A stretch of 64,000 bases of DNA. Origin: Squalus acanthias. Taxonomy: Eukaryota. Positions 2,070-21,267 of this stretch are shown one piece after another. The translations under genes and the position numbers were made by a program. Each line of letters begins with the position of its first letter. Within the stretch, counting starts at the first letter, position 1. The notes beneath the pieces were generated by a model that had not been told where the DNA came from, did not search any database, and saw nothing but the letters and a program-made list of their open reading frames with translations. The stretch spans positions 31,684,001 to 31,748,000 of the forward strand of contig CM059432.1 in NCBI GenBank assembly GCA_030390025.1. Direction: 5' to 3'.

Positions 2070-2394
2070 AAAGACTTGCGTTTATATAGCGCCTTTCACG
2101 ACCACCGGATGTCTCAAAGCGCTTTACAGCCAATGAAGTACTTTTGAAGTGGAGTCACTGTTGTAATGTGGGAAATGCAGCAGCCAATTTGTGCACAGCA
2201 AGGTCCCACAAACAGCAATGTGATAATAACCAGATAATCTGTTTTTGTTATGTTGGTTGAGGGATAAATATTGGCCAGGACACCGGGGATAACTCCCCTG
2301 TTCTTCTTCAAAATAGTGCCATGAGATCTTTTACATCCACCTGAGAAAGCAGATGGGGCCTCGGTTTAACGTCTCATCTGAAAGACGGCACCTC
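2070..2394 (-). mobile_element. Deu-domain SINE (SacSINE1-like), 3' part; 5' part lies at 15260-15397, split by the provirus
   Basis: Reverse complement matches the intact + strand copy at 62542-62995. Removing the provirus and one CCTC restores ...AAAGACGGCACCTCCGACAGTGCAGCACTCC... Confidence 0.85.
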
Positions 2395-2970
2395 TGTAGA
2401 ATTCGCAATATATCGCGATTTTATTAATAAGGAGAAAAACACAGAGTTTCGTTCAAACAGCTTTTATTTCAGCAGAATGCTGTCAGGTTTCAAAGTGGAC
2501 ACAAGCAGCTTGTAAAATGGCCGCCGCACCTCGTGGCGGAACATTCTAGACTTTTCGACAGGCAGACAAGATGGCGTTCCAATAAACATTTGTGCAAGAT
2601 CGATTAAGACTCAGCACATTGAAGATAATACACGAGACATCATGGGTTTACAGTATACACATAAATACTGAAATCGGTCTCCCAGGTACGAATGAAAGCT
2701 ATTGTACCAAGTAATCAAGAGCCCATCCAAAGACATTAATATGTAAAATCCCAACGACTCTACGATGAGAGAGCCGTTAGCGGGTAGTTACAGAAAACAC
2801 TTGGAAGCCCCAAAACCCCTCCAGGGAGAACACCGACCGATTAAACAATGGGAGAAATATTAACAGGTACTCAGACATTTACGAGTAGCCCCGAAACCCA
2901 TTAAAAACGGAGATCACCCTATACAAGACATTTGAGCGCCAAACCCTAACAAAAGAAAAGACATTAAGGT

Positions 2971-3004
2971 TGGGCGGGAAACGGAAGATTTTGTACTATA
3001 ATTA
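2971..3004 (+). promoter_or_regulatory. Putative LTR core promoter: GC box, ETS-like site and TATA-like box
   Basis: TGGGCGGG (2971-2978), ACGGAAG (2981-2987) and TATAATTA (2997-3004), followed by a pyrimidine-rich initiator-like tract. YY1-like AAAATGGCCGCC and AAGATGGCG motifs lie upstream in U3. Motif inference only. Confidence 0.5.
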
Positions 3005-3856
3005 CAAGCTCCAAACCGTCCATCTCTCTCTTATCCTCTTATCTTGCTGGTGTTCATCCTCGTGGCTGCTCCTGTGCTCTTGACTCGCCGTCTTGTTCCT
3101 GCTTGCCTCGTGTCTCTTTTAAAAGACTGTTGAACTTTGTGATCCGCTCGGATCTACCTCGTGTCGTGTCGCGAAGACCTGTGTAGAACTGGGCTCTGAA
3201 GCCTTGAAGCGGGCGCACCATTCCGATAAGTCGGTAAACGGTGTCGGAACCGAAGGCCCAAGACGAGATGAGATGAGATGAGATGAGATGAGAAGAGAAG
3301 AAGACCATACTTATCGCCACGGTCAGTAAGCCCCGACCGCGCCTGTAGGTCGAATAGACATTTTCCTTGCCAGGAAGACTTCTTTGAGTTCTACAGAACT
3401 GACACAGGAAGACTCTTCTTCGAGTTTTATCGAACCGGTGTGAGGGCACAGGAAGACTCTTTTTTTGAGTAGAGTCGGAACTCCGAGGACAACACAGATC
3501 TTCATGACAGCAGACGTTCCAGCCTGCTAGCCGGAGCAGAACGAGTAAACAAGTGGGGCCAGGAGACCCCCTGATCGACACGTGGGTGCTGCGGTGAAAA
3601 ACATCCGATCAGAGTTTTCGGAATTCTCCGAGTTATCACGAGTGGTGAGCATGAGTCTCGAATCCTACGAATCTAGCTAGGACAGATATTGATAGGGGAG
3701 GGTTTCAAGTATTAAGGATAATTGTAATGTGTGCCCCCATTTACGGTGTGTCATTCGTTCCTCGTTTCCCTGAAATTAGTTACATAACTGCGTGTAAGAT
3801 TGTACTGTCATGAATCTGTGCTTATGACATGTATTTCGTAATCTTAAGTATTATGC

Positions 3857-3862
3857 AATAAA
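3857..3862 (+). terminator. Putative LTR polyadenylation signal (3' LTR copy at 15007-15012)
   Basis: The only AATAAA I found downstream of the TATA-like box within the LTR. Confidence 0.5.
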
Positions 3863-4109
3863 GATTTTCCATTTCGTACCATTCAACCGAGTCTACCTGA
3901 GTTTCATCTCCATTACTGCTCTCGCATCTAAGTCCAGTGTCTAGAACCGTAAGGGCGAGTGGGTCGAACCACTCACAGGTGTGTCTAGTGCTCCCAGACT
4001 GGCTGGAGACCAGAACAGGCAATAAGGCCTAAACCCGCACTAGCATCCAGGCTGCACAGAGCCACACGAATCTCACAGGCTGAGAGACGGTCAGAAACCC
4101 TTACAGAAA

Positions 4110-5915
4110 ATGGCGACCGCGGCAGGACACTGGCAGCGAGAGGGTAGTGTGTTAGACTTTGGTGTGAATGTACGAAATGTTATGCAGGAAAAGATAGCAG
4201 ATTATGTGTTCGGAAAGGTAAATCTAACTAAGAAATGGATAAGTGACCTGTTAGCGGATAAGAGTCCACTAGAGGCAGCCGAGAGGTGGACAGATAGTAA
4301 GGAACATAAAAAGACAGTCGAGAAAGCAGTCTGGTTAATGTGTTACAAAAGGCAGGTCCAGATTTCAAACCAAGTCATTACAGCGCAAACAGCTCGGATC
4401 AGGCATTTAGAGGAGGAAATGGATGAGAAGGTCTCTGGAGGGGAGTTGCTCATTAGGAATTTAAGTGTGCTGCACCAAGAACGCCAGGAAATCACCAGTC
4501 ACCATAAAACAAGGATAGATTACCTCGAGTGCCAGGTCACTGAGGCAAAGTTAAGTGAGGGCAGACTAAAGGAACGATGTGCCCGCCAAGCTGCCCAGAT
4601 AAGAACCCAGGAAGAGAGCTTAACGGGGGTTAGGGCGGCATATAAGTTGTCCCTTGAGGATAAGTTTCAGGGGGCCGATCATAGCGCCTGCCAACAGGAG
4701 ATAGAGCACCTTAAAAGGGCCGTGAACAAAGCGCACGGCATGGTGTGCCTTATCAGTCCGTCAGCACACCAGCCGCTAGTAAATGAGGAGTTTCAGAAAT
4801 CCCCACCAAGTAAAGCAAAGGAAGTATTGGCCACTGCGCCCTCCACGCCACCCAGCTATTCGGAAACCTGGGTAAGGGAGGAAGTAGTGGAAGAAACGAA
4901 AGAGCCCACTGAGGGAGAAGTGGAAAAGGGACCGTTGTATCCGGTAACGGGTATAAAAAGGGGCCCAAACAGAAACGGGGAGGAAGAAGGGGTTCTCCTC
5001 AACCAGCTTGTGTTGCCTCACAGCTCACACCAGCTGAGAGTTATGATAAATCACGTACGGAAGCTGACCGAGTCAGACGACCCTTCCGTACATTTCAGAG
5101 AAATTGAGCAAACCGCAGCCATCAACGGCTGCGATGATGGGGAAACAGCAAAAATACTGTTATTTTCGTTAGGCAGTTCAATCCTTCAGTGTCTCTCGGA
5201 CGAGAGCAAGAGGGGAACCAAGACTTATGAGGCATTGAAAAATGAGGTCCTAGAAGTGTTGGGGGCGGACGATGAAGGTCCGTTTGCTAGAGTGGGACAG
5301 ACAGTGCAGATGGAGGGAGAACCCCCGAAGGTTTTTGCCGACAGGCTGTGGCCAGTATATCAGCGCAGCTGTCCAGGTGCGCCAGAGCGCGACGCCGTGG
5401 ACGGCGCCGGTTTAAATCATTGGCTCAGGTGTATAGTAGCCAACAGTTTGCCAGCCGTCAGAGAACAGGCAAAGGCGTGGTTTGATCCCAATGACCCCAA
5501 CATTACGGAAGACTCGGTCTTGAATCGACTCACGATAGGATATCGCAATATCAGGGGTATGGGAACACGTCCCCTTAAGGGAAAAGTACATGAGGTACGA
5601 CCCGCAGCCCCGGCTCAAAGGGAGTGGCATCAGGAGGGTAACCGCGCCCCGCAGGCAAGTAATGCTTGTTACGGGTGTGGGAGGACAGGGCACTGGCGCA
5701 AGAACTGCAGGAACCCTTGGAAGGATTCCAGGGATAAAAATCCCGCAGCCCGAGCCCAGATGCCTGTCTCTGTTAGGGAAGCTAGTGCACCCACCCCTCC
5801 CGACGACCTCGAATCAGTGTTGGGAGCCATGCGCAACTTCATGAGTGCGCATGGAAAAGTGGCGGTTGCTACCGGCCCCGTAGGTGCCGCAGGACCGTCT
5901 AACCAGACCCAATGA
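4110..5915 (+). CDS. gag: Gag polyprotein (601 aa)
   Basis: Open ORF with strong Kozak context (AAAATGG), an N-terminal coiled-coil-like region, a PPSY motif (4848-4859), a putative capsid region and a CCHC knuckle CYGCGRTGHWRKNC. Ends TGA at 5913-5915. Confidence 0.92.
   Translation: MATAAGHWQREGSVLDFGVNVRNVMQEKIADYVFGKVNLTKKWISDLLADKSPLEAAERWTDSKEHKKTVEKAVWLMCYKRQVQISNQVITAQTARIRHLEEEMDEKVSGGELLIRNLSVLHQERQEITSHHKTRIDYLECQVTEAKLSEGRLKERCARQAAQIRTQEESLTGVRAAYKLSLEDKFQGADHSACQQEIEHLKRAVNKAHGMVCLISPSAHQPLVNEEFQKSPPSKAKEVLATAPSTPPSYSETWVREEVVEETKEPTEGEVEKGPLYPVTGIKRGPNRNGEEEGVLLNQLVLPHSSHQLRVMINHVRKLTESDDPSVHFREIEQTAAINGCDDGETAKILLFSLGSSILQCLSDESKRGTKTYEALKNEVLEVLGADDEGPFARVGQTVQMEGEPPKVFADRLWPVYQRSCPGAPERDAVDGAGLNHWLRCIVANSLPAVREQAKAWFDPNDPNITEDSVLNRLTIGYRNIRGMGTRPLKGKVHEVRPAAPAQREWHQEGNRAPQASNACYGCGRTGHWRKNCRNPWKDSRDKNPAARAQMPVSVREASAPTPPDDLESVLGAMRNFMSAHGKVAVATGPVGAAGPSNQTQ
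4111..4128 (+). other. Primer-binding site, tRNA-Arg(TCG)
   Basis: TGGCGACCGCGGCAGGAC is the 18-nt reverse complement of the 3' end (...GTCCTGCCGCGGTCG-CCA) of vertebrate tRNA-Arg-TCG as I recall it. It sits 5 nt (GAAAA) after the LTR. Confidence 0.85.
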
Positions 5916-8900
5916 CTAGAGCCCGCGCAGCCCGTCTACCTGTGTCCGCTCAGCTATGATGCGTGGAAGCGACCCCTGGTGGAAATGGAGGTAGAGAAAC
6001 AGAAGGGTAGTTATTTGTTAGACACGGGAGCTTCTTGCACCGTGATTCATACAGATAGCCCTTTTGACTCACCGCTATCTACCAAGGTCCCATTCACATT
6101 AGCGGGGTTCACGGGAAAAGAACAGGCTGGCGCGTTCTCCTTTCCGCTATCCATTCGTTTGGGGGCACTTCACATCAAGTGGAAGTGCATATTGATGGAA
6201 TGGCAGGAGGGGGGTGGAAGAGGTATCCTCGGGTCCGATCTTCTATCAGGACACGGGATCCTCGTGGACCTCAGAAATCATTGTCTCTGGGGGGCTAAGA
6301 GTGAAAAAGGCGAGGTAGTGGTAATTCCGGGGGAGGAAGGAACAGGGGTCCTGTGTACCATGCAGCCATCCGGAGGCTACGACCTCGGGCTTATGGTCGC
6401 AGATGTCCCAACGGACATGCAAACGTACGTGTCAGATAATATGCACGCGTTTGCAACCCACAAGCACGATTGTGGGAGGGTTACCGGGTTTGAGGTCAGC
6501 GTAGATGGGGACCCCATGACCCGGCCCCAAAAGCAGTATAACTTCCCCAAAGAAGCAGAACCCGATATGGAGACAGCAATGTCCTCCTTGGTGCAGCAGG
6601 GCGTGTTGAGGCCAATAGCCACACACGTGAACTCCCCATTATGGCCGGTTAGGAAGCCGGATAATTCGTGGAGGGCCACGGTGGACTACAGAGTCCTTAA
6701 CAGTAACATTCCCGCCTGCGCGCCCACGGTAGCAGCAGTTGCTGACCTAATAGGGAGTATCCCAGCGTCCGCGACCACGTTCACGGTGCTGGATATCTCG
6801 AACGGTTTTTGGTCCATCCCGCTGCGGCGAGAGGACCAGTACAAGTTTGCCTTTACTTTCAAAGGACAACAGTACACATGGAACTGTCTGCCACAGGGTT
6901 TCCACAATAGCCCCAGTATTTTCCATCAGTGTATGGCAGGAAGTTTAAAGGAGTTTAGTCAGCCCCATCAGATAGTGCAGTACGTGGATGATTTGCTCCT
7001 GTTTACGGATTCAAGGGAGGAGCATGGACCACTGCTGGCCGAGTTATTGGAGCTGCTAGCGAGAAAGGGTTTTAAAGTAAACCCTAAGAAAGCACGTATC
7101 GGTCAGCAGGAAGTAAAATTCCTGGGACTGACCATTCGCGCTGGGGAAAGAGCCATAGATAAGGCTAGGAGGGAGTCGGTGCAAGAGTTACCGATTCCTA
7201 ACAACATAAGGGGTGTGAGGTCCTTCTTGGGACTGACCGGTTACTGCAGGGATTTTATCGAAGACTATGCGGCCACAGCGGCGCCGCTCCTCCGACTCCT
7301 CCATAAGGGAGTGGAGTGGTCTTGGGACGAGGGCTGCCAAGCAGCCTTCGAGAAGTTAAAAAGGGATCTGCAGACCGTGCCAGCCTTAGGGGCCATAGAT
7401 GGGGGGAAGGAGTTTTTCCTGGAGGTAGCTGCCAGCGGGGACAGCTTGAGCGCTGTGCTGCTCCAAGAGCGTCACGGCAAGCTGAGGCCGGTTGTCTATT
7501 CGTCCAGGGTGTTAACGGATGTGGAGAGAAGTTTCTCCAATTGCGAAAGGCACCTTTTAGCCACGCATTGGGCTGTGAAAAGATCAGCGATCTTCACAGG
7601 GCTCTCTCCCATCACTCTCCTCACCCACCACACACCAACTAAGATGCTTCTAGATGGGAGGATTAAAGATGGGACTGTAAGCAGCGTGCGTATTGCGCGC
7701 TGGACCCTTCTTCTTTCCCAGATGGATCTTAGAGTAAAAGGTCTTTGCGAGCCCAGGCTTGCGGCCAATTTGGTATACCCCGGTACAGCCCACCGATGTT
7801 CGGTGGAAGGGGTGTGGGACGTCAACATAGGTTTGCGGGCCGGGATACATCCCACTGGGCGCGAGATTTATGTTGATGGTTCTAGCACAGTATCTGCTGG
7901 CGAACGACTCACAGGGTGTGGAGTTTATGACCCTGCGGCAAACCTTGCCCTGGCGATCAAGCTCCCTAGCACCATGAGCGCGCAGCAGGCTGAGCTGTCT
8001 GCTGTGGTGTACGTTGTTACCCACCCAGACCTTTTCCCAACCCCATACACGATTTGCTCGGACAGTATGTTCACATGCAATTCGTGTACGGAATACCTGG
8101 CCATTTGGTCCCGCCGTGGATACACCTCCGCGGACGGGCGACCTTTAACGGTGAAGCCCTTGCTGGAAAAGATCCTAGCAGCAGTAGGGGAGGAAGGGGA
8201 GATTTTCATCCATAAGGTGAAAGCTCACTCCTCCACAGAGCCCCGTGGGGAGGGCAACCAGCAGGCGGATGCGCTAGCCAGGGAAGGTGCCCGCAACGGC
8301 ATTTTCTGGGACCCCTATGGGACCAGACCCATGGCAGTGATCCAAGGCAGGGACGGGAATCCCGGGAACTCCAGGGTAGCATTGCCCCTGGACCTTAAGA
8401 CCGTCCAAACCCAGGATCCCGCCCTAAAAGCAGTCCTAAAAACCATTGCTGAGGGGAAGCAAGTAGAGGGTCCGTACAGTACGGCAACCCTCTCAGTTAA
8501 GGAAGGCATGCTGTTCCGCGAGGAGCAGTGGGTTGTGCCGCAGCAGCACAGGAGGGAATTCCTCCAGTTGGCTCACGAGGGACCAGGGGCAGGGCACCCC
8601 GGGCCCGAGGTTACCTGGCAACGGGTAGAGCAAGCGGGATGGTGGCCAGGGCTCAGGGAACAGGTCCGAGAGTTCTGTGCAAACTGTCTTGTGTGCGCTG
8701 CAAACAACCCAGACCCCCAGAAAAGGAAAGTGCCCATGGGGCACGTAAGAAGGGTAGAGGGACCATGGCAGTCGATGCAGATCGACTATATAGGGCCCCT
8801 GCCCACCACCCAGGGAGGCTATAAATACTGCCTCGTCTTGGTGGATGTGTTTTCCAAGTGGGTGGAAGCCTTCCCCTGTCGAACAGCTACGGCACTGGGT

Positions 8901-10442
8901 ACTGCAAAAATCTTGGTCCGGGAAGTGTTCTCGCGGTGGGGACTCCCCCGTTTTGTGGAGTCAGACCAAGGGAGTCATTTCACCGGCCAGGTGATGCAGA
9001 ACACCCTCATGCTTTTGGGCATTGAAGGGAAGTGGCACGTAGCACACAATCCCCAGTCATCCGGGATTGTTGAACGCATGAACCGGACCCTGAAGGAGAA
9101 ATTGAGGAAAGAGACTAGGAACTCGCCCCAAAAATGGGCGAAAGTTCTGCCTTTAGTCCTCATGGGGGTCCGGGCCAGTCAGTCAAAAAGTACGGGGTAC
9201 TCCCCGCACGAGGTGATGACTGGGAGGCTCATGCGAACCCCCACCCATGTGCTAGCGCCGGTGCTCACTGAGGGTCAGCTCCAAGAGATAAGCAGGGACA
9301 AGTTCGCCCAGACCCTCTTGGAGCGCCTAAAACAGGTGTATGAGCAGGCGGCTGGGAACATGGGAAGGCAGCATCAGGGCAATCGCCTGTTGCCGGAACC
9401 CCGCAAAACGCGGGAGTGGGAAGTAGGAGACCAGGTTATGGTCAGAAACTACGCCAGAGTAGGGAGTCTGGAACCACTGTATATGGGACCCTACAATATT
9501 GTAGATAAGGCGAGTCCCATGGTATACGCCGTAAAGGTACCTCGGCGCAGTAAGTGGTTCCATGTAAACCAGTGCAAACTGTACAAGCCAGGTGCGCAAG
9601 GGAAAACCACAGGGGTAAACCCTGCGAGTGGGGACGCGCAGCCCCAGGTAGGACCACAAGGCACACAGGCAGGCAAAGCAGCTTGCATCAGGGGAGGAGA
9701 CATCCTGGAAAATTGTGAAACATTTTTGTGGGGTTGGGAGTCAGATGAGGGAGAGTTCCTGGAACTCGAGTCAGATGAGGATAGTGATGAGGACGAGTGG
9801 GGATCGGGGAACGCAAGGGTCGCCCCCGATTCAGGTATAGGGAGGACAGGGGCTGCAGATAGAGATCCACACAGGGTGGACACCGAGGCTGCAGGTCCCG
9901 AACACAGGAGGGAGGAGCTAGGGGAGGCGGAGCCAGCCGCTGTGAGACCACAGGGAGTGACGGTGAGAACCTCAGAGCCCGAGCCGCCCACCTTGAACGT
10001 CCTGCCCTCGGGGGAGGTAGGGATTGCGAGTGAAGGGCCGCCTGCTGGGCCGAGCAGGGCAGTGCCACAAGCTGCAAGTCCCGAGGTCAGGGAGGCGGAG
10101 TCAGGGGAGGCGGAGCCAGCGACTGTGGTGGGACCACAGGTCGTCCCGGCGAGAGTCTCGAACCCCGGTCCGTCGGTCCTGGGATTCCTGCCCCCGACAA
10201 CTCCTCGTAGGTCAAGTAGAGAACCCCAGCCCAGGAAGATGTGGGTATGGCCCCAGACGGTCCCAAGGCGTAGACTCAAGGTTAAGGCAGCCCAGATAGA
10301 ACCCAGTCCCATCGCGGCAGCAACAGGCTGCGGCAGATCAGAGGAAGGGGTCAGTGCAGCAACAGGCTGCGGCAGATCAGAGGAAGGGGTCAGAGCCCTC
10401 CCACCGTCGGGAAGAGCTCGCAGCAGCCTTCTCAGAATTTAA
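5916..10442 (+). CDS. pol: Pol (PR-RT-tether-RNase H-IN plus C-terminal extension), in frame with gag
   Basis: Protease LLDTGAS (DTG 6021-6029). RT LPQGFHNSP and YVDD (6981-6992). Degenerate RNase H LEVAAS (about 7419). Second RNase H IYVDGS..SAQQAEL..SDS..KVKAHS..GNQQADALA (7866-8290). Integrase HHCC, D(8784)-D(8964)-35-E(9072) and GPY module. No stop between 5916 and 10439. Confidence 0.96.
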   Translation, partial: LEPAQPVYLCPLSYDAWKRPLVEMEVEKQKGSYLLDTGASCTVIHTDSPFDSPLSTKVPFTLAGFTGKEQAGAFSFPLSIRLGALHIKWKCILMEWQEGGGRGILGSDLLSGHGILVDLRNHCLWGAKSEKGEVVVIPGEEGTGVLCTMQPSGGYDLGLMVADVPTDMQTYVSDNMHAFATHKHDCGRVTGFEVSVDGDPMTRPQKQYNFPKEAEPDMETAMSSLVQQGVLRPIATHVNSPLWPVRKPDNSWRATVDYRVLNSNIPACAPTVAAVADLIGSIPASATTFTVLDISNGFWSIPLRREDQYKFAFTFKGQQYTWNCLPQGFHNSPSIFHQCMAGSLKEFSQPHQIVQYVDDLLLFTDSREEHGPLLAELLELLARKGFKVNPKKARIGQQEVKFLGLTIRAGERAIDKARRESVQELPIPNNIRGVRSFLGLTGYCRDFIEDYAATAAPLLRLLHKGVEWSWDEGCQAAFEKLKRDLQTVPALGAIDGGKEFFLEVAASGDSLSAVLLQERHGKLRPVVYSSRVLTDVERSFSNCERHLLATHWAVKRSAIFTGLSPITLLTHHTPTKMLLDGRIKDGTVSSVRIARWTLLLSQMDLRVKGLCEPRLAANLVYPGTAHRCSVEGVWDVNIGLRAGIHPTGREIYVDGSSTVSAGERLTGCGVYDPAANLALAIKLPSTMSAQQAELSAVVYVVTHPDLFPTPYTICSDSMFTCNSCTEYLAIWSRRGYTSADGRPLTVKPLLEKILAAVGEEGEIFIHKVKAHSSTEPRGEGNQQADALAREGARNGIFWDPYGTRPMAVIQGRDGNPGNSRVALPLDLKTVQTQDPALKAVLKTIAEGKQVEGPYSTATLSVKEGMLFREEQWVVPQQHRREFLQLAHEGPGAGHPGPEVTWQRVEQAGWWPGLREQVREFCANCLVCAANNPDPQKRKVPMGHVRRVEGPWQSMQIDYIGPLPTTQGGYKYCLVLVDVFSKWVEAFPCRTATALGTAKILVREVFSRWGLPRFVESDQGSHFTGQVMQNTLMLLGIEGKWHVAHNPQSSGIVERMNRTLKEKLRKETRNSPQKWAKVLPLVLMGVRASQSKSTGYSPHEVMTGRLMRTPTHVLAPVLTEGQLQEISRDKFAQTLLERLKQVYEQAAGNMGRQHQGNRLLPEPRKTREWEVGDQVMVRNYARVGSLEPLYMGPYNIVDKASPMVYAVKVPRRSKWFHVNQCKLYKPGAQGKTTGVNPASGDAQPQVGPQGTQAGKAACIRGGDILENCETFLWGWESDEGEFLELESDEDSDEDEWGSGNARVAPDSGIGRTGAADRDPHRVDTEAAGPEHRREELGEAEPAAVRPQGVTVRTSEPEPPTLNVLPSGEVGIASEGPPAGPSRAVPQAASPEVREAESGEAEPATVVGPQVVPARVSNPGPSVLGFLPPTTPRRSSREPQPRKMWVWPQTVPRRRLKVKAAQIEPSPIAAATGCGRSEEGVSAATGCGRSEEGVRALPPSGRARSSLLRI

Positions 10443-10741
10443 AGGGGGCTGCCCTGAGAACGGGCGGCGCTGTACAGGAATAAGTTTAGGATAGGTTTCT
10501 AAGTTCATAGTTTAAGGTTAAGAATAAGTTTATAGTTTTAAATCAGGTTAAGTTTGTAGTTTAATTTTAACAGAAAATGGTAAAATGATGGGAGTTAGAG
10601 ATAGGTTTAGTTAAAGTTTATTTAGTGAACATTGAAGTTTACGTGAGGCGAGGTCAGGGGACCCGCTCACTCTTCACAAAAGCCAGAGACTCTTGCGAGG
10701 CTGGCTACCTCATTCTATCTGATCACAGGAACCAAGGAAGG

Positions 10742-13093
10742 ATGGAACGAATTCTAGTATTGCTCGCGGCAATCGGATGTGGATTGGCCTATCGAGGCCG
10801 CACCAAGGATGTCGTGGTGTTTGGATGCTCCGGGGACACGGCCCCTATCGCGGTGGATGGGACCGGAAGACGGGAGGCTGAGGAGACCACCACCTATTTC
10901 CACAAGGGAAGGTGGCCAGGATGGCTGGGAACGAACTCAACGGAGTATTCCAGCACATCGGGGTTTGCCTACCAAGAGACTTCTTTAATGTGCCCCAAAG
11001 TAAGGATCATCGCACCCAGGATCAGCGTCACCGTCGGCAAACGGATTTGTTTGACTTGTAGTGGGAATGTCCCATTGAGCCGATGGTGGTGGCTGCGAAA
11101 GCTGAGCAAAAACATGAGGAACTCTTCGGTCGAGTGGGAACGACTGGGTAATAATACCCATCGGACAATTACGGGGACAAACGGACAAGTGAGAGTCTGT
11201 TGGGACAAATGGTGGGAACCGGATGAGGGAATTTATGTATGTATGTGGGGGTCAAAGTACGTTTGCCCCAAAGGCATCTCCATATTTTTCATTAACCAAT
11301 GGCAGGATAACGGACAGGGGATGAGGTGGGATGCGAGCACCAGGGGGTGCGGAGCCCCATTCTCCCCGATCCCAGTAAATGCCACTGAACTCATTACGCG
11401 CCCACGCAAAGCCCTGCCCACGATTCCGGTGGTTCTAGCTGAAGAGGAAGGGTGCCCTAAAACTAGTAAGGGACCCGGGAATGGTTTGGTACTGGTCCCC
11501 ACAGACCAGATACTATTTCAGGGGGTACATTACGCGGTGGCCTCGGTGATTTTAAATCTCACCGAGGTGCGGTTACCAGAGTGGTGCCCCAAAAAGACGG
11601 AACAGTTGTATCAGGTCCTGTTGACCAAGATGTTCAGACAATTTTACGAATTCGATTTCGCGGAAATTGATAAAACAAGTTTGTACACCGCACCACATGA
11701 AGTTTTGGATCAAGTAGGGAGGCAAAGAAGGGGTGTAGTGAACGACGTGTTCACTGCTTTTAACACGGGTACATCTGTGGTCAACGCTCTAGACAGTGTG
11801 GAGCTGCAGACCCAGATTAATGGTCTAAAGACGCAATTAAAAGACATTCTAACAGATGAGAATAAAGTGGTAGGGTCGGGTTTACACGAGGACCAAGCCA
11901 TGACTCTCCATTTAAAGGAAATTATAGCAGAGCTAGAGAAACACGCGAGAACGGTAAATGCCCTGATTAGGGAAGATCGGAATGCATCCGATCAAGCTGC
12001 GCAGAATGAGGTGTGCGTGCTTTACGGGGCGTGGTTACTGGGCGAGGGCCGCAGTAATTTGGAGGATTTAAAACAAGGTTTGGTCCCGTCCTGGATAAGT
12101 AACAAACACCTGCGGACGCTCCACCCTTTTCAGAACGCATTAAGTCCGTGCCAGCTCAGGCTAGCTTCAGAAGCATACCCAGTCCCCGTGGACTGCGGAC
12201 GATCAAACCATACTATCATGGGTATAGTTTTACGTATGCCGGTTTTGGGCGACACAGCAAAGCCCGCCCCGGTGTATCGGGTAGAGAACATTGGTGTCAT
12301 TCAGGGGGGAGCCCACATTCGCTATGCAGCGGTTCCACCCTACGTCATCCGCTGGGAGCAAACGATGACAGGTACAGATCTCTCTGGTTGTCGTGGCAGG
12401 GGAGCACACATAATACTGTGTCCCCAGCACTTGAATGCCTTTTCAACACCACAGTGCGGGTTCAGAACGGCTGGCGCCAAGTCCATGAATTGCACCATGG
12501 AGGCAATGGCACAAGATCATGTGCCTCCGCAGGTAGCATACATCGGGGGTGGAACATATTGTGTTACCACTGCAGCGCAACACTACCAGCATGGAAACCG
12601 TAGCCGGTGTCCGGTGAGTGCCAGCAGTTTCTGTTTCAAACCCAGGGCGGAAGTTCAAGTAGCACAACAGCGAATTGTCCCAATCCCTGAACCATCCACT
12701 GTTCATCTAACAGTAAAAGAGAATTTCACCGACTTGCAGCGATTCGTCGCGCATTTCGGACACCTCATTCCCCCTCTCCCTGAACACCTCACCAAGCTTT
12801 TAAAAGCCGTCGCGGTGTCACAAAAACATTTTTACACACTAGAGCAGAAAACTGTCGAAATAGGAACAGACATTCTGGATATAGTAATTCCACCGTGGTG
12901 GAATCTGTTCACCAATATTGAAGTGCCGTCATGGATCAGGATAGCCTCCCACATTTTAGTCGTATGCCAAGTTTTTATTGTAGTGTACCTATTGGTCGTA
13001 CATTGTAAAAGAGACAAACGCCTCACCAAGCATGAAAACACGGGAGAGTGGCGAGAACGTTACGTGCGCGTGCACGATGAAAGCACCGTGTAA
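10742..13093 (+). CDS. env: Env-like class I fusion glycoprotein (783 aa) with N-terminal Ig-like domain
   Basis: ATG 10742 in strong context just after a candidate acceptor (..CTATCTGATCACAG at 10728). Signal peptide MERILVLLAAIGCGLA, N-glycosylation sequons, furin site RQRR (11720-11731), fusion-peptide/heptad region, Cys-rich region, TM helix at about 12941-13000 and a short tail. Confidence 0.88.
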   Translation: MERILVLLAAIGCGLAYRGRTKDVVVFGCSGDTAPIAVDGTGRREAEETTTYFHKGRWPGWLGTNSTEYSSTSGFAYQETSLMCPKVRIIAPRISVTVGKRICLTCSGNVPLSRWWWLRKLSKNMRNSSVEWERLGNNTHRTITGTNGQVRVCWDKWWEPDEGIYVCMWGSKYVCPKGISIFFINQWQDNGQGMRWDASTRGCGAPFSPIPVNATELITRPRKALPTIPVVLAEEEGCPKTSKGPGNGLVLVPTDQILFQGVHYAVASVILNLTEVRLPEWCPKKTEQLYQVLLTKMFRQFYEFDFAEIDKTSLYTAPHEVLDQVGRQRRGVVNDVFTAFNTGTSVVNALDSVELQTQINGLKTQLKDILTDENKVVGSGLHEDQAMTLHLKEIIAELEKHARTVNALIREDRNASDQAAQNEVCVLYGAWLLGEGRSNLEDLKQGLVPSWISNKHLRTLHPFQNALSPCQLRLASEAYPVPVDCGRSNHTIMGIVLRMPVLGDTAKPAPVYRVENIGVIQGGAHIRYAAVPPYVIRWEQTMTGTDLSGCRGRGAHIILCPQHLNAFSTPQCGFRTAGAKSMNCTMEAMAQDHVPPQVAYIGGGTYCVTTAAQHYQHGNRSRCPVSASSFCFKPRAEVQVAQQRIVPIPEPSTVHLTVKENFTDLQRFVAHFGHLIPPLPEHLTKLLKAVAVSQKHFYTLEQKTVEIGTDILDIVIPPWWNLFTNIEVPSWIRIASHILVVCQVFIVVYLLVVHCKRDKRLTKHENTGEWRERYVRVHDESTV

Positions 13094-13532
13094 TCGGAAA
13101 ATGGCGTCACTCCCGCTCGCCACGTGCGCCGCGGAAGTTTGTACTCGATCATGATTTTCAAAGACTGTAAATACGTTTGGAACTCGACATGTTTTAAGAG
13201 TTGGTGTTGATTATTTTTGGTAATGGTGTTGTAGTTAAAAATGATTGTTTGGTTTTGGGTTTTGTTTTTCCTTTCCCTGAATAAAAAATGTGAATATATA
13301 GGTGATACGAGAGGCATCGGCCTGGTTACGCCTGGAAGGAAAACAAGTGGTGTAAGTTTAAAGGCAAATAATGCCTACGGTACTATAAAATGTAATTTTC
13401 TTGGGAAATAAGGACGACGCAAAGACCCTAGAGAGTTTAAGTTATGGGATTAAATTTTCTGGATTCGGAGAAAATCGAGATAATATTGCTCACCACAATA
13501 TTTTTGATACGATAAGCGGAGTTATTCGCATC

Positions 13533-13544
13533 AACAGGAGGGAC
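13533..13544 (+). other. Polypurine tract
   Basis: AACAGGAGGGAC immediately precedes the 3' LTR. Confidence 0.75.
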
Positions 13545-15255
13545 TGTAGAATTCGCAATATATCACGATTTTATTAATAAGGAGAAAAACACAGAGTTTC
13601 GTTCAAACAGCTTTTATTTCAGCAGAATGCTGTCAGGTTTCAAAGTGGACATAAGCAGCTTGTAAAATGGCCGCCGCACCTCGTGGCGGAACATTCTAGA
13701 CTTTTCGACAGGCAGACAAGATGGCGTTCCAATAAACATTTGTGCAAGATCGATTAAGACTCAGCACATTGAAGATAATACACGAGACATCATGGGTTTA
13801 CAGTATACACATAAATACTGAAATCGGTCTCCCAGGTACGAATGAAAGCTATTGTACCAAGTAATCAAGAGCCCATCCAAAGACATTAATATGTAAAATC
13901 CCAACGACTCTACGATGAGAGAGCCGTTAGCGGGTAGTTACAGAAAACACTTGGAAGCCCCAAAACCCCTCCAGGGAGAACACCGACCGATTAAACAATG
14001 GGAGAAATATTAACAGGTACTCAGACATTTACGAGTAGCCCCGAAACCCATTAAAAACGGAGATCACCCTATACAAGACATTTGAGCGCCAAACCCTAAC
14101 AAAAGAAAAGACATTAAGGTTGGGCGGGAAACGGAAGATTTTGTACTATAATTACAAGCTCCAAACCGTCCATCTCTCTCTTATCCTCTTATCTTGCTGG
14201 TGTTCATCCTCGTGGCTGCTCCTGTGCTCTTGACTCGCCGTCTTGTTCCTGCTTGCCTCGTGTCTCTTTTAAAAGACTGTTGAACTTTGTGATCCGCTCG
14301 GATCTACCTCGTGTCGTGTCGCGAAGACCTGTGTAGAACTGGGCTCTGAAGCCTTGAAGCGGGCGCACCATTCCGATAAGTCGGTAAACGGTGTCGGAAC
14401 CGAAGGCCCGAGACGAGATGAGATGAGATGAGATGAGATGAGAAGAGAAGAAGACCATACTTATCGCCACGGTCAGTAAGCCCCGACCGCGCCTGTAGGT
14501 CGAATAGACATTTTCCTTGCCAGGAAGACTTCTTTGAGTTCTACAGAACTGACACAGGAAGACTCTTCTTCGAGTTTTATCGAACCGGTGTGAGGGCACA
14601 GGAAGACTCTTTTTTTGAGTAGAGTCGGAACTCCGAGGACAACACAGATCTTCATGACAGCAGACGTTCCAGCCTGCTAGCCGGAGCAGAACGAGTAAAC
14701 AAGTGGGGCCAGGAGACCCCCTGATCGACACGTGGGTGCTGCGGTGAAAAACATCCGATCAGAGTTTTCGGAATTCTCCGAGTTATCACGAGTGGTGAGC
14801 ATGAGTCTCGAATCCTACGAATCTAGCTAGGACAGATATTGATAGGGGAGGGTTTCAAGTATTAAGGATAATTGTAATGTGTGCCCCCATTTACGGTGTG
14901 TCGTTCGTTCCTCGTTTCCCTGAAATTAGTTACATAACTGCGTGTAAGATTGTACTGTCATGAATCTGTGCTTATGACATGTATTTCGTAATCTTAAGTA
15001 TTATGCAATAAAGATTTTCCATTTCGTACCATTCAACCGAGTCTACCTGAGTTTCATCTCCATTACTGCTCTCGCATCTAAGTCCAGTGTCTAGAACCGT
15101 AAGGGCGAGTGGGTCGAACCACTCACAGGTGTGTCTAGTGCTCCCAGACTGGCTGGAGACCAGAACAGGCAATAAGGCCTAAACCCGCACTAGCATCCAG
15201 GCTGCACAGAGCCACACGAATCTCACAGGCTGAGAGACGGTCAGAAACCCTTACA
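13545..15255 (+). repeat. 3' LTR (1711 bp)
   Basis: Copy of 2395-4105 at a constant offset of 11150, followed by TSD CCTC. Confidence 0.97.
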
Positions 15256-17146
15256 CCTCCGACAGTGCAGCACTCCCTCAGCACTGCACTGGAGTTTCAG
15301 CCTAGCTTTATGTGCTCAAGTCCCTGGAGTGGGACTATGAACCCACAACCTTCTGACTCAGAGGCGAGTGTGCTTCTGAGTGAGCCACAGCTGACACTGG
15401 AGAAATTAGGGCAGGTGACCAAAAGCTTGGTCAAAGAGGTAGGTTTTAAGGACTGATCTGTGTCTGAGTTATGAAAAAGACTGTGGAAACTTTGACTTTT
15501 CAGCTTTCAAAGAAGGAGGCGGAAAAGTGATCTTTAAAATTATATCGTAGTATGGAAATCCAGAAAATTAATTCAAACTAAATTGTGCGAATAGAACAAG
15601 GAAATAGTTTTACACCAAAAAAGCAAATTTAGGACTTATGTCAGGAGGTTCTCCTTCACACAATTAGCAAATGAAGATGGATGGGCCTAGGACACTGCAC
15701 TGAGGAACTCCTGCAGCAATGTACTGGGGCTGATGACAGTGCAAGCAATTAACCAAATTCAAGTACTAAACTAGGGTTGCCAACTCTGGTTGGACGTTTT
15801 TGGAGTGGTTTCAACGCATGACCTCCTGCCTCCAACTGCCCCGCCTCCCATTGGTCACCCCATGTGTGCATCCTGGTGACACACCGACTTCAAATGCCAA
15901 ATGGCAGGCAAGTGGATGTCGATGCTTGGTTACCCAATTGGAAGATTCTTGAATATTAATCAAACAGGCTTCTGCACCAACCCCCCCCCACCCAATTTCT
16001 TCTTTTATTCCCCTATAATCTTTCTTCATGGTCACTTGCAGAATTGCCTGGGAGATTAATAATTCCTGGAGACTCCATGACAATCTGGGTGAGTTGGTAA
16101 CCCTAATTTAAACATAGGAACAGGAGAAGGCTGTTCAGGCACTCGATCCTGTTCCACCATTTAATTAGATCTGTCTGTTCTGTACCTCAACTTCACATTT
16201 GATCCATATCGGCAGCACGTCCCAAACCCGGGACCTCCACCACATAGAAGGACGAGGCCAGCAAGCGCGTGGGAACACCATCATCCCCAAGTTCTCCTCC
16301 AAGTCACACACCATCCTTACTTGAACAGATAAAGGGAAATCGTGTTTGACAAATTTATTCGAGTTTTTTGAGGATGTAACTAGCAGGGTAGATAAAGGGG
16401 AACCAGTGGATGTAGTATATTTGGATTTCCAAAAGGCATTCGATAAGGTTCCACATAAAAGGTGATTACACAAGATTAGGGCTCACAGGGTTGGGGGTAA
16501 TATAGTATCATGGATAGAGGATTGGTTAACGGACAGAAAACAGAGAGTAGGGATAAACGGATCTTTTTCAGGTTGGCAGGCTGTAACTAGTGTTGGGGCC
16601 TCAGCTATTTACAATCTATATTAATGACCTAGATGAAGGGACCGAGTGTAATGTATCCAAGTTTGCTGATGATACAAAGCTAGGTGGGACAGTAAGCTGA
16701 GGAGAACACAAAGGGCTGGATTTTGTCTTGGGGTCGGGTTGGGGTCATGTTACCCGCATTTCGTGTTGCCCCCCCCAACTCCAGATTAATGTGGATGAAT
16801 GATGCGATTTTAACTTAATTGGCCAATTGAGTTCCAACATGTGGGAACCCATGGCCAATGAGTTATTCCAGTCTGAAAGTCGCCTCCGATGACGTCATCA
16901 TTGCTGCTGCATTTAAGGTCTGCAACAAGCCTTGCTTCCTCTGCAGGCTGCCAAGCTTTTGGACCTCTAATCTAAAGGCACCTGCAGCAGGAATGGCCAG
17001 CCAACGGCCATGGGCTGCTCCCAGGTTCCATGAGGTTGCCCTTCAGGCTTTGGTGGATGGAGCAAGAGCCAACAGGGAGGTGCTCTTCCCCTCCTCAGAG
17101 AGGAAGAAGCCTCCCTAGCAGACAAAGGCTGTGTGGGTCCATATCG

Positions 17147-17955
17147 AGAGGTCGCACAACACCAGGTTATAGTCCAACAGTTTTATTTGAAATCACAAGC
17201 TTTCGGAGCTATCGATTTGCTCCTTCCTCAGGTGAAGTAAATTAGATACAGAATCTCCAAAGCATATATAGATGGAAAACAAAGCATGTGTACTTTACAA
17301 TTGCAGACCAATAAATTAAATCATCCTGACTATCTGCCGAGGTGTGATAAAGTTAATTAAGTCAGCCAGGAAGGTACCACATCAAAGACATAGCAAGATA
17401 CAACTGAGACAATGAGGTGTAGTCGCAGGGGTTCTAACGTGTCAAAAGCTGCCGTCTGTATGTAAAACGAAAAGCTTTAACATTTTTTTACTTTTTTACT
17501 GGGAAAATTTTTACTTTTTTACTGGGAATCACATCTGTGAACAAGCTAACGACGACTCGAGTCCGGATCACGTCATGTATCGTGACATAAACCCAAGATC
17601 CCGATTGAGACCGTCTTCATGAGTGCGGAACTTGGCTATCAGTTTCTGCTCGATGATTTTGCGTTGTCGTGTGTTTCTAAGGTTGCCTTGGAGAACGCTT
17701 ACCCGCAGATCCGAGGCTGAATGTCCTTGACTGCTGAAGTGTTCCCCAACTGGGAGGTAACAATCCTGCCTGGCGATTGTTGCGCGGTGCTCGTTCATAC
17801 GTTGTCTCAGTGTCTGCATGGTCTCGCCGATGTACCATGCCGCGGTGCATTCTTTCCTGCAACGTATGAGGTAGACAACGTTGGCCGAGTCACATGAGTA
17901 TGTACCATGTACCTGGTGGGTAGTGTCCTCACGTGTGATGGTGGTACCCGCATCA
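17147..17955 (-). mobile_element. 5'-truncated Penelope-like element (GIY-YIG endonuclease and 3' end)
   Basis: ORF 17568-17955 reads NVVYLIRC...WYIGET.QTLRQRMNEH...EQKLIAKFRT..DGLN. 13-bp TSD TGGGTCCATATCG (17134-17146 and 17956-17968). Confidence 0.9.
17193..17236 (-). ncRNA. Minimal type I hammerhead ribozyme motif of the Penelope-like element
   Basis: Minus strand UUCAC-CUGAGGA-A-GGAGC(loop)GCUCC-GAAA-GCUU-GUGA shows the CUGANGA and GAAA core, a perfect 5-bp stem II, UCAC/GUGA stem I and a palindromic AAGCUU stem III region. Confidence 0.7.
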
Positions 17956-20031
17956 TGGGTCCATATCGCCCAGGAGGTCACCTCCTTATCATTCACATGC
18001 AGAACCTGGATCCAGTGCAGGAAGAGGTTTCATGACCTTCTACGTACTGCTAAAGTGAGTATGACTTTCCCTTCACCCTCAATCTGATCCCCATTGCCTC
18101 TCCTCACCAACACTCAGCTTTAGCAACCTCTTCCTCCATATCCCACTTGACACTGACATCCATGCACCCTTACCCATTCCCTCTCCCTCTATGGTCACAA
18201 TCACCTTACTATTCGACTATGCAGCCCTCACACTCCCTATCACTGTCATGCTTTGAAAACAACTTACAACACATAGGGAGGGCCCTTAGTCTCGCCACCT
18301 CAATCCATCTTTGTCTCCTTCTAAGCATCTATGCTATGTATTCTCTACACTCACTCCTTCAATCTCACTCAAACTCCACTTGTCTCCCTCATTGCAGGAA
18401 AAGAGAGCTCACAATAAAAGGGAAAGAGCCAGGACAGGAGGAGGGCCACCCTCATTAGCCCAGCTCACCCCCTGGGAGGATGCGGTCCTGGAGATCGTGG
18501 GCGTAGAGGAGGAAATGCAAGTGGGGGACGGACAGACGGGTGCATCAGAGCAAGCTGGTGACTGAATAGTGTTCCATCTCTCTCATTGACATTGCATGCG
18601 TCGCTGATAATGAATCTGAAGCTCTAACAGATGGATTTATGATCATCTGCAATATGCAAAGTGCATGTAACCTCACATCTCTGACCCTTTCCTTTACTCC
18701 CCCACAGGACCATCGCAAGCACCCATCCCCACTAGCCAGGAGGAAGAGCCTGAGCAGACAGACTCCTCAGAGGAAGCTGCAACCTCTGAGGGCGCAGCGT
18801 CAGCAGAACTCAGCACACCCAGCACCAGCGCAGACACTCACACCTCGGTGGGACCCTCGGGACATAGTGTAGTGTTGTCACCTGGTCTATCACAGCTCAC
18901 AAGTGAGCATCAGCAGATGGTGGAGACAGGGACAGCAGTGGAGAGTCCTAGTCGGAGGGCGCAGGACTCTCCTAGCTCGGCTCAGCTGCATGTCGACCCT
19001 CTGCCTTTGGGTCCATCCATAAGATCAGCGGTGCTGGGACTCCAGGAACAGATGCAGGAGTCTCTGACAGGTTTTGTCTCCAGGGTCGCTGCGAGTGTGG
19101 AGCGAATGGAGGAATCCATAGCGAACATGAGCAGAGCCTTTGTGGAGTCATTGGCGCATGAACGCATCACCACGGAAAGGATGGCAACCTCCGTGGAAAG
19201 GATGGCTACAGTAGAGGAGAGGATGGCTACGGCTATGGAGGAGATAAGTCGCCAGAGTGCAGAAAACATGGTCATTGTTCAGAATAGACTGGCATCTCTT
19301 GAGGAGCGTTGGTCATCTATTGAACAGAGAAACCAGACCTTCATGGAAGTCCTTCTGAGTAGGACTTCCAGTGCAGATACGGGTCCCCATGTCCCCCCTG
19401 ATGTGCAGCAAGGTGCTCTCAAGCCACTTGCAAGCGCTGAGGTGGACCTGACCCATGAGAGGGATGTTGGTGGCGCACAACAAGGAGGTGGGGGCTCCTC
19501 TCCAAGCGCTCACACTTCCATGCCACTGACAGGTCCTCGGTCAGAGCCCCACCAGAGTCCGCACCCAAGTGAAATCAGCGTCTCAACCCCTGCCCAGCCG
19601 CAGGAGCAGCAGACTGTTGCCGAGCCCTCGCAGGTTCGCAACCCCAGAGGATGCCCACCAAAGGAGTCAAGACAGGAGCAGCAACAAAGTGAGCAGGGGG
19701 CCTCCACTTCTGCTGAAGCCACAGGGGAAGCACCACGTAGGAGCACGCGTAAGAGAAAGAAACTGCACAAATAGTCACAAGGGTAGTCACTTGGGTGAAT
19801 TTTGATGTGTATTGTGAAAAAGCCATCAGGTGTAAAGTTTAAATAAAAACTCTGATGGCTACAGCTGCAATTGTGGCGTCTGTCATTTCGCTAATGGGAC
19901 TTCCACAATGAGGCCTTAGGATAACTTGCAATTGTCAGTATGGTGGTCACATTGTTAGGGATCCGCTGGGTCTGGGCCATTGTCGTAGCTCTGGTAAGAA
20001 GCTGCGAGGCAAAAGTGCTTTCTTGTCTAGG

Positions 20032-21267
20032 CTAAGCAAATCTGGCCAAGATGAGTGCGTTCCTTGCATTCCGGGCAGCTATGGTCTCGCGTAATGCTGC
20101 CGCTGGTTGAGGGGCCTCTGCAAGTTGTTCGTTCTCTCTCTCCTCCTCCTCATCTGAGGAGGCTATGTGAGGAGCCACTTGGTCCTCCGGCATCTGTAAG
20201 CCACGACGCTGTGCCATGTTGTGAAGTGCACAGCAAACCACGACGATTCTGGAGACCCTGGCTGCTGAGTATTGCAGGGCTCCACCTGATCTATCCAGGC
20301 ATCTGAAGCGCATCTTCAGCATACCGATGGTTTGCTCGATTATGGCTCTGGTGGAAATGTGACTGGAGTTGTAGCTCTCCTCAGCTGCGTTGGATGGGCT
20401 CCTCAACGGCGTCATTAGCCACGTCTTCAGAGGATAGCCCTTGTCTCCAAGTAGCCATCCGTGAAGTTGGTCTGGCGGACTGAATAGCGGAGGCACACTA
20501 GACTGGCGCAGTATGAAGGAGTCATGGCAACTGCCAGGGTACTTGGCACAAACATGCAGAACTTCCTTGTTGTGGTCACACGCCAGCTGAACGTTGAGGG
20601 AGTGGAAGCCCTTGCGGTTGACAAAAATACCTGGATTGCGATGGGGTGCCTTAAGGGCCACATGTGTGCAGTCAACGATGCCCTGCACCCTTGGAAAGCC
20701 TGCCAGATTAGCTAATCCAACCGCACGCGCCGTGACACTTGCTCGATCCTTGGTGAAATGGATGTGAGTGTGCGCGATGGCAAAGAGGGCATCGGTTACC
20801 TGCGTGATGCAGGTGTGTGCGGCCGCCTGGGAGATGCTGCTGATGTCTGCTGCTGATCCCTGGAATGAGCCTGAGGCAAAAAAGTTGAGTGCGGTGGTGA
20901 CTTTGACGGCCACTGGTAAGGGTTGTCCACCTGGTCCTCTGGGCTCCAGGTCTTGTTGCAGCATTGCACAGATGTCACCCACTACCTCTCGCGAAAGTCA
21001 GAGCCACATTTGACACTGCTGCTCAGACATGTTGAGGTAGCTGACCCTGTGTCTGTAGACCCTGTTTGGGGGGTATCTCCTGCGCCGACGGCCTTCCATG
21101 CGCTGGCCCCTTCTGTCCTGTGCAGCTTCAGGTGGGTGAGCAGCAGCTTGGCGCTCCTGCTGTTGCTGCTGCTGTTGGTGCTGCTGTTGTTCATGGTTCT
21201 GCTGGTGCCGCGGCTGTTGTTCGTCCTCATCGGATACCCAGGTGGGAAAGAAATAAATGGCTCCCAT
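20032..21267 (-). pseudogene. Harbinger DDE transposase (HARBI1-like), about 411 aa with one internal stop
   Basis: Motifs [56 protein letters not shown] and CCALHN. The ORFs 20998-21303 and 20032-20982 are in the same frame, separated by TGA at 21000-20998 (likely CGA>TGA). Confidence 0.92.

Follow-up and report, generated by a model that had tools for sequence, protein, structure and literature searches.

To which retroviral lineage does an intact provirus in a shark genome belong, and how did its relatives come to number in the thousands? The provirus in question occupies positions 2395-15255 of a 64,000-nucleotide stretch of Squalus acanthias DNA (assembly GCA_030390025.1, contig CM059432.1, positions 31,684,001 to 31,748,000 of the forward strand; hereafter the window) and is a complete long terminal repeat (LTR)-gag-pol-env-LTR element whose three genes are open. 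A first-pass annotation of the window took it for a lokiretrovirus or a close relative of that group. The evidence reviewed here indicates that it is probably a recently integrated endogenous retrovirus (ERV) of the lineage related to snakehead retrovirus (SnRV), with a family that spread infectiously in the germline. This lineage had previously been seen by Pol alone, under the names “CmiERV lineage I,” clade “Huo” and shark-frog “foamy-like ERVs,” and SnRV-like or foamy-like ERVs in cartilaginous fish are already on record in the available parts of three papers (PMC4422223; PMC5512871; PMC6001957). New here are an intact gag and env of the shark-frog lineage, found in a shark of the squalomorph group, together with about 2,900 junctions between LTR and primer binding site (PBS), of which about 40 belong to a young subfamily, and strong purifying selection on env.

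Pol Relatives and a Probable Affinity to SnRV

Seven short words of the provirus reverse transcriptase (RT) were searched for in the RT alignments that the lokiretrovirus paper prints in its supplement (PMC7947760). Five of them, SNGFWS, LPQGFH, IFHQ, QQYTW, and NPKK, are restricted to SnRV rows (3/3, 3/3, 3/3, 3/3, and 2/2 occurrences, respectively). QGVLR is found in SnRV and in two foamy viruses, bovine (BFV) and simian foamy virus (SFV), while FAFTF is found in SnRV and walleye dermal sarcoma virus (WDSV). None of the seven is present in any Loki row of these alignments. Across a 47-residue RT core, 36 positions are identical to SnRV and 23 to a fish Loki row, as counted by eye rather than computed, and the provirus reads LPQGFHNSP where the Loki rows have their PFGY-NSPAEF box.

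A protein search with the region from RT to integrase gave 227 matches among 7997 candidates, the best 120 of which were listed. Among those listed, the top relative is one unnamed protein with 88% identity. It is followed, at 40-44% identity and with 99-100% of the query covered, by models from the frogs Rhinophrynus, Pyxicephalus, Aquarana, and Xenopus tropicalis that bear the names “NYNRIN-like” or “Gypsy retrotransposon integrase-like,” then by an ostrich model (38%) and gamma-like ERVs (about 30%). A scan of viral_contigs for reference retroviruses returned one unnamed relative at 25% identity. The relatives P0014-P0017 were considered as SnRV itself and ruled out, as their motifs differ. 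Against the PDB by sequence, Pol matches three kinds of RT with roughly equal scores, those of Ty3 (2.4e-70), of xenotropic murine leukemia virus-related virus and murine leukemia virus (XMRV/MLV; about 1e-68) and of foamy protease-RT (about 2e-63), with HIV RT far weaker (about 1e-14). Among integrases, that of prototype foamy virus matches best (PFV; 1.9e-33).

A maximum-likelihood Pol tree was built from 43 rows, with no SnRV, foamy-like ERV (FLERV) or full Loki sequence among them, and with support from the Shimodaira-Hasegawa-like approximate likelihood ratio test (SH-aLRT). Of the 15 rows that went in as Ty3/Gypsy, 14 are split with support 100 from the rows that have a dual RNase H, the query among them. 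A Ty3/Gypsy placement, which the first-pass annotation had named among the outcomes that would speak against its lokiretrovirus reading, was thus not seen, and its description of Pol as retrovirus-like is borne out by Pfam matches to both the tether and the RNase H domain. The query falls in a clade of 13 rows together with frog and ostrich rows (support 95), and query and frog rows group with support 98. The gamma-, epsilon- and other ERV rows form a group of their own (support 96). The Loki-like row of the tree, Bufo protein P0021, stands alone outside the query clade; it is a single protein that starts in the middle of RT, and it is labeled Loki-like by motif only, from the Loki-type surroundings of its YVDD.

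Such Pol lineages have a published record. ERVs of elephant shark “lineage I” cluster with SnRV in the accessible text of Han (2015; PMC4422223), and the portion available of Xu et al. (2018; PMC6001957) describes an SnRV-related clade, “Huo,” across all major vertebrate lineages. Elements of elephant shark and Xenopus were called foamy-like by Aiewsakun and Katzourakis (2017; PMC5512871), with the frog FLERV nested among those of sharks; pol is the sole gene that the available text of that paper gives as detectable in them.

An Envelope of the F Type

What kind of envelope accompanies this Pol? Env begins with a signal peptide, after which some 230 N-terminal residues precede an F2-like part that starts at about residue 245. 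A furin-type site, RQRR (11720-11731), is followed by the fusion peptide (from 11732) and heptad regions, and the protein ends with a membrane anchor (12941-13000) and a tail of 30 residues. Neither PF00523 nor any other Pfam family matches Env at E <= 0.1, and 14 relatives likewise show no match to PF00523. As a single sequence against the PDB, Env returned only an Ig-domain match to JAM at E 0.86. An Ig-like nature of the N-terminal region is a tentative idea, suggested by this weak JAM match, a V-set match at E 0.045 in relative P0157 and a UniProt label on P0135.

Relatives of Env are confined to no single host group. A HMMER search of 1.84 billion representatives found 51, and of ten that were looked up, those that carry a name come from the sharks Mustelus, Chiloscyllium, Heterodontus, and Pristiophorus and the frogs Pelodytes, Mantella, and Xenopus; one skate gene model is also related. 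The part conserved among them, residues 230-756, comprises the furin-type site, the fusion peptide, a long heptad region, a Cys-rich beta part, a second heptad region and the anchor. The presence of sharks and frogs among the relatives of both Pol and Env fits the shark-frog FLERV lineage of Aiewsakun and Katzourakis. In the ESM Atlas, the nearest Env cluster (874 aa, score 0.84) serves as a lead only.

An AlphaFold2 model of Env built from 41 sequences has a mean predicted local distance difference test (pLDDT) score of 61 and is confident at residues 240-310 and 420-650. When this model was compared with the PDB by Foldseek, the F proteins of human parainfluenza virus 3 (hPIV3), respiratory syncytial virus, Langya virus and Nipah virus led the list, with E from 1.2e-10 (hPIV3) to 1e-8. 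A second structural aligner gave Z 12.1 for postfusion Nipah F (root-mean-square deviation 5.2 over 290 residues) and Z 8.7 for postfusion foamy Env (8rm1_D), and all 50 structural matches listed are F proteins or foamy Env. The resemblance to Mononegavirales fusion proteins put forward in the first-pass annotation is therefore upheld at the level of a predicted fold, which matches paramyxo- and pneumovirus F. A profile of the 41 Envs compared with the PDB yielded foamy gp130 as the sole match below E 0.01 (4.7e-4), and the alignment includes a shared Cys pattern in the beta part of the fusion subunit. The core of foamy Env is itself common with paramyxo- and pneumovirus F, and foamy Env has a leader peptide and a receptor-binding domain between its two subunits, as set out in the available part of PMC11468914. 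The N-terminal 224 residues of the shark Env, folded alone from nine sequences, gave a mean pLDDT of 34.8 and an unusable model.

Among the predicted viral structures of BFVD, the Env model matches the epsilonretrovirus Envs of walleye epidermal hyperplasia virus 1 (WEHV-1; E 7.9e-12) and WDSV (E 7.4e-9), as well as baculovirus F and glycoproteins of arli-, lispi- and chu-viruses. Proteins of abalone and ranid herpesviruses were also matched in this search.

Is the Provirus a Lokiretrovirus?

The first-pass annotation had placed the provirus within, or specially close to, the lokiretroviruses and had seen in it an extension of their host range to cartilaginous fish. Membership or special closeness is not supported, given the absence of the RT words from all Loki rows, the missing match to PF00523 and the position of P0021 outside the query clade. 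The F-like fold is common to foamy Env, so that it does not mark a lokiretrovirus, and an extension of the host range is accordingly not shown.

That the provirus nevertheless belongs to the lokiretroviruses or to a lineage deeply sister to them, in which case their host range would take in cartilaginous fish, appears very unlikely. The Env fold and the dual RNase H of Pol would both suit such a placement, but foamy Env is F-like in fold as well, and a dual RNase H is common to all retroviruses and does not discriminate. The lack of a supported order relative to P0021 leaves room for a deep relationship, whereas the query clade, with its support of 95, leaves P0021 out. A further point in its favor is the name NYNRIN-like given to gene models of the relatives, as the available text of PMC7947760 links Loki integrase to CGIN1. 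The same source reports that Loki-Str Env matches the Pfam F family PF00523 at E 2.2e-7, a family that the provirus Env and its 14 relatives do not match at E <= 0.1.

The distribution of the two groups also speaks against their identity. Wang and Han scored six of six cartilaginous-fish genomes, and that of the frog Pyxicephalus adspersus, as Loki-negative (PMC7947760 supplement). Two such Loki-negative species nevertheless hold relatives of the shark family, of Env in Chiloscyllium punctatum and of Pol in P. adspersus; because these relatives come from genomes scored negative, Wang and Han did not count the shark clade as Loki. Xenopus tropicalis carries a relative of the provirus Env and, separately, Loki-Xtr, whose printed Env tail looks different on visual inspection. 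In the literature searched, whose coverage excluded PMC9972966 on endogenous foamy viruses of cartilaginous fish, there was no report of a lokiretrovirus in cartilaginous fish and no description of the Env fold in SnRV-like ERVs.

Genome Organization

The intact provirus of the first-pass annotation, with its target-site duplication, PBS and polypurine tract, is confirmed (Table 1), and the LTR coordinates match exactly. The translated frames of gag, pol and env contain no internal stop or frameshift. The two LTRs differ at four of 1711 positions (2415, 2502, 3260, and 3753), a divergence of 0.23%; if the rate is taken as tenfold slower, as Han (2015) did for elephant shark in the available part of PMC4422223, the provirus would be about 5 My old. 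An AATAAA at 3857-3862 in the 5′ LTR is a candidate polyadenylation signal. Each LTR also contains a minus-strand stop-to-stop frame of 184 codons (3054-3608 and 14204-14758), which shrinks to 84 codons when counted from ATG.

Table 1. Coordinates of the provirus features in the window.
Feature	Position	Strand	Basis or remark
Target-site duplication, left copy CCTC	2391..2394	+	Identical bases at 15256-15259
5′ LTR, 1711 bp, TG...CA	2395..4105	+	1707/1711 bases equal to 13545-15255
gag, 601 codons from first ATG	4110..5915	+	Stop-to-stop frames, translation
PBS, 18 nt	4111..4128	+	Complement of last 15 nt of tRNA-Arg(TCG) plus CCA
pol, 1508 codons, in gag frame behind a single TGA	5916..10442	+	Stop-to-stop frames, Pfam
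RT (RVT_1)	6648-7136	+	Pfam above cut-off; YVDD at pol codon 356
Tether (RT_RNaseH_2)	7323-7721	+	Pfam above cut-off
RNase H (RNase_H)	7863-8291	+	Pfam above cut-off
Integrase	8535-9053	+	Pfam Integrase_H2C2 and rve above cut-offs; PFV integrase match
SH3-like part of integrase	9456-9584	+	Within pol
env, 783 codons	10742..13093	+	Stop-to-stop frames, translation
Polypurine tract AGGAGGGA	13536..13543	+	Read directly; single base separates tract from 3′ LTR
3′ LTR, 1711 bp, TG...CA	13545..15255	+	Ungapped self-comparison, offset 11150 bases
Target-site duplication, right copy CCTC	15256..15259	+	Directly outside 3′ LTR

The PBS begins after a five-base gap behind the 5′ LTR. The matching 22-nt 3′ end of tRNA-Arg(TCG) occurs at 422 exact sites in the host genome, and ARAGORN called a tRNA-Arg(tcg) at both loci examined (L045 and L046). 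On contig C26 (about 38.99-42.2 Mb; loci L046-L048), tRNA-Arg(TCG) genes are arranged in long tandem arrays that repeat about every 1.62 kb and also include tRNA-Ser(GCT).

The first ATG of gag, at 4110, overlaps the PBS, and the second Met is codon 25 (4182). As the frame upstream of this second Met is closed in two of six sampled family copies, it may be the true start. Gag carries a CCHC knuckle at 5667-5708 (codons 520-533), with a weak Pfam match, and ends in a TGA (5913-5915) followed by CTAG. The RNA past this stop (5913-5992) is predicted to fold no more stably than its shuffles (z = +1.83), in a model that leaves pseudoknots out. Pol has no start codon of its own. It contains a protease DTG at codon 36, where the Pfam protease match is weak, and ends in a tail of 268 residues (codons 1241-1508, 9636-10439) rich in Pro, Ala, Glu, and Gly. 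This tail is the least conserved part among copies, with 40-69% identity compared to 93-96% for the remaining Pol. An open frame of 315 codons runs antisense to the end of pol (9491-10438).

Could the provirus be a basal spumaretrovirus, that is, a true foamy-like ERV, and not an SnRV-like orthoretrovirus? Its organization makes this unlikely. Spumaretrovirinae are defined by a Gag without a Cys-His box, a Pol that is not made as a Gag-Pol fusion, and accessory genes after env. The shark provirus, in contrast to mammalian foamy viruses, has the CCHC knuckle, a pol in the gag frame behind one stop and lacking its own start, a PBS that fits tRNA-Arg, and no plus-strand ATG open reading frame (ORF) of at least 60 aa downstream of env. 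In favor of a spumaretroviral origin, homology to gp130, a trait of Spumaretrovirinae, is present in modest form (profile E 4.7e-4, fold Z 8.7), and gp130 is the sole solved sequence relative of Env. In Pol the signals diverge, with PFV integrase as the best integrase match in the PDB and the word QGVLR common to BFV and SFV, but with the RTs of XMRV/MLV and Ty3 outscoring foamy RT in the PDB search. Publication of the shark and frog Pol relatives as foamy-like ERVs (PMC5512871, in the part available) belongs on the same side as the integrase.

The Family and Its Spread

How numerous are such elements, and by what route did they multiply? Junctions were counted in the shark's own genome (assembly size 3.71 Gb) with 33-nt patterns at up to two mismatches, and reversed control patterns found none. 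This gave 2922 LTR-PBS junctions, 2161 junctions between polypurine tract and LTR, and 4760 LTR starts. The family comprises a few thousand proviruses of up to 12.9 kb each. The LTR starts do not exceed the summed junctions (2922 + 2161), so that there is no clear excess of solo LTRs, and no solo-LTR number can be derived from the three junction patterns as they differ in sensitivity. Among the LTR starts listed, many pairs have a spacing of about 7.7 kb in place of the usual 11.15 kb, and this points to a shorter form of the family that multiplied in its own right.

Six copies taken at even steps of the junction list are 78-97% identical to the provirus, with amino-acid identities of 68-92% in Gag, 93-96% in Pol and 86-97% in Env. 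A gag word particular to the provirus is found at only 40 sites in the genome, and the young subfamily is therefore small. Family sequences are also present outside this assembly. In 14 public runs from six studies, filed under six coded labels that may not be six species, 25-40% of sampled words were found; in four runs the contigs cover all 30 bins, with 58-320 contigs per run that are at least 99% alike. Among the run contigs listed, no joint from LTR or leader to env was seen. None of the 14 runs is recorded as RNA, and a contig depth that is greater over env than over pol in two runs guessed to be RNA is no measure of expression.

The env genes of this family bear a clear mark of selection. 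Of the 30 env copies with the best scores, 29 are open, and the pooled proportions of synonymous (pS) and non-synonymous (pN) differences are 0.068 and 0.005, a pN/pS of 0.075. Even singleton variants number 92 synonymous against 36 non-synonymous, where the neutral expectation is 1:3.3. Copies drawn regardless of protein score have a pN/pS of 0.11-0.24 (env and pol) at a pS of up to 0.33, and over all comparisons env pN/pS lies between 0.07 and 0.21. Purifying selection on env is strong. With ratios this low, most differences would have arisen before integration, while env and pol were in use, and this fits spread by infection or reinfection.

A family that multiplies mainly as an intracellular LTR retrotransposon, with env as a passenger, would also reach very high copy numbers, and the shorter variant of about 7.7 kb, common among the LTR starts listed, could be taken as a sign of such a habit, as could the absence of a fully open copy among the six sampled. 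A passenger gene sits poorly, however, with purifying selection on env in every comparison, or with an env that is open in two of the six sampled copies and in nearly all of the best-scoring ones. We consider a mainly intracellular multiplication improbable.

Several points weigh against an SnRV-related, infectiously spread ERV as the explanation preferred here. The apparent link to SnRV is drawn from word look-ups and a by-eye alignment, next to a tree without SnRV, FLERV or full Loki sequences, and that tree has no supported branching order among P0021, the query clade and the other ERVs. Traits of the SnRV type are absent: there are no accessory ORFs, the Env tail has 30 residues and not 136, and the gag stop is UGA and not UAG. 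The available parts of two papers describe accessory ORFs, the 136-residue Env tail and a UAG-GGC gag stop for SnRV (PMC12193657; PMC13517186); accessory ORFs and a long Env tail are traits of SnRV, not established as defining the SnRV-related clade. The Env model is middling, with 319 of 783 residues at a pLDDT below 50, and the sequence match to gp130 is weak. None of the six evenly sampled copies has all three genes open. Finally, the 30 env copies are the best-scoring of 14024 candidates and so form a sample biased toward conserved proteins, but the synonymous excess is not an artefact of this choice, because such a bias cannot create it.

The life cycle that this SnRV-related virus may have followed can be sketched. 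Its genome would be a simple gag-pol-env one, with reverse transcription primed by tRNA-Arg(TCG) and Gag-Pol presumably made by read-through of the UGA in its UGA-CUAG context. Integration would yield a 4-bp duplication. Env would be a class I fusion protein, cleaved by furin and of the paramyxovirus-F/foamy-Env type, and its extra N-terminal region is probably receptor-binding. Purifying selection would have preserved env while the family entered the germline of this squalomorph shark thousands of times, and this selection suggests spread by infection or reinfection and not by purely intracellular copying.

Host and Neighboring Sequences

The shark host proposed in the first-pass annotation was checked with the window itself. 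An ORF at 24024-24587 has a Death domain and is the first coding exon of MyD88. It is 85% identical to that of Pristiophorus japonicus and 82% to that of Heptranchias perlo, with five other sharks at 76-79% and two rays at 65-71%. This places the host among sharks, nearest to squalomorph orders. The exon lies 8.8 kb downstream of the provirus and has the same orientation.

Other mobile elements occupy parts of the window. An open frame of 321 codons at 20032-20997 (-) has a DDE_Tnp_4 transposase domain of the Harbinger/PIF type (E 5.9e-38). Three remnants of non-LTR retrotransposons, each with endonuclease and RT, are found at 30806-31453 (-), 48389-50856 (+), and 55225-58125 (+), the last with a weak GDSL-lipase-like match at its start. 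A frame of 153 codons at 17568-18029 (-) has a borderline GIY-YIG match (E 1.3e-4) and may be a Penelope-like element.

Implications

The shark-frog lineage has so far consisted of pol fragments and old, broken copies, and an intact young copy supplies its whole gene set. This set pairs a Gag and a Gag-Pol expression in the style of orthoretroviruses with a foamy/paramyxovirus-F type of Env, and the history of fusion machinery among retroviruses becomes easier to study with such a copy in hand. F-like Env is not a marker of lokiretroviruses, and the provirus cautions against its use as one. For shark genomics, a family of thousands of proviruses, each of considerable length, is of interest in itself, and selection on env suggests recent infectious spread.

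Two broader ideas may be offered more tentatively, as possibilities that we hold less likely than the placement near SnRV. The F-type (“class Ib”) Env could be an old envelope shared by foamy, SnRV-like, epsilon- and lokiretroviruses and not a capture peculiar to the last; the predicted Envs of WEHV-1 and WDSV also match the model. The virus might also still circulate among sharks, or have done so very recently, given an env kept by selection, near-identical LTRs and near-identical pieces under six organism labels.

Comparison With Known Systems

Lokiretroviruses resemble the shark provirus in their LTR-gag-pol-env-LTR layout, dual RNase H and F-type Env with an RXKR-like cleavage site. The provirus differs from them in its RT signature, in having no sequence match to PF00523 and in not sharing a supported clade with P0021. 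At the level of the envelope, the closest solved systems are foamy Env gp130 (8RM0/8RM1) and the F proteins of paramyxo- and pneumoviruses, whose fusion machinery has the same fold (Z 8.7 and up to 12.1, respectively). The extra region of the shark Env is N-terminal, before the F2-like part, whereas the foamy receptor-binding domain lies between the subunits, and paramyxovirus F has no counterpart of this N-terminal region.

SnRV, an unclassified exogenous orthoretrovirus of fish, shares with the provirus RT words that are found in no other printed row, a zinc knuckle in Gag, and a gag and pol in one frame split by what is probably a read-through stop in the shark element as well. Unlike SnRV, the shark element uses UGA-CUAG, has no accessory ORFs and has a short Env tail; the Env and Gag of SnRV were compared by description only. 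Ovex1, an ERV of chicken and zebra finch, likewise has an SnRV-related Pol, and an ostrich model is found in the query clade. From the available part of its description, likened to the shark Env in words only, Ovex1 has a large ORF3 of 873 aa, in which a coiled coil precedes the anchor and the tail is short, and the CWLC, CKS17, and CX6CC motifs are absent; its Gag, however, has no zinc finger (PMC2717909).

The nearest counterparts, again likened by description, are CmiERV lineage I, the CmiFLERV-XtrFLERV elements and clade Huo. They share a Pol lineage close to both SnRV and foamy viruses, occurrence in cartilaginous fish, and frog elements nested among those of sharks. Where these have a chimaera as host, only pol detected and, for the CmiERVs, an estimated age of 54-75 My, the provirus described here has a squalomorph host, an LTR divergence of 0.23%, a gag and an env that are both intact, and a copy number in the thousands.

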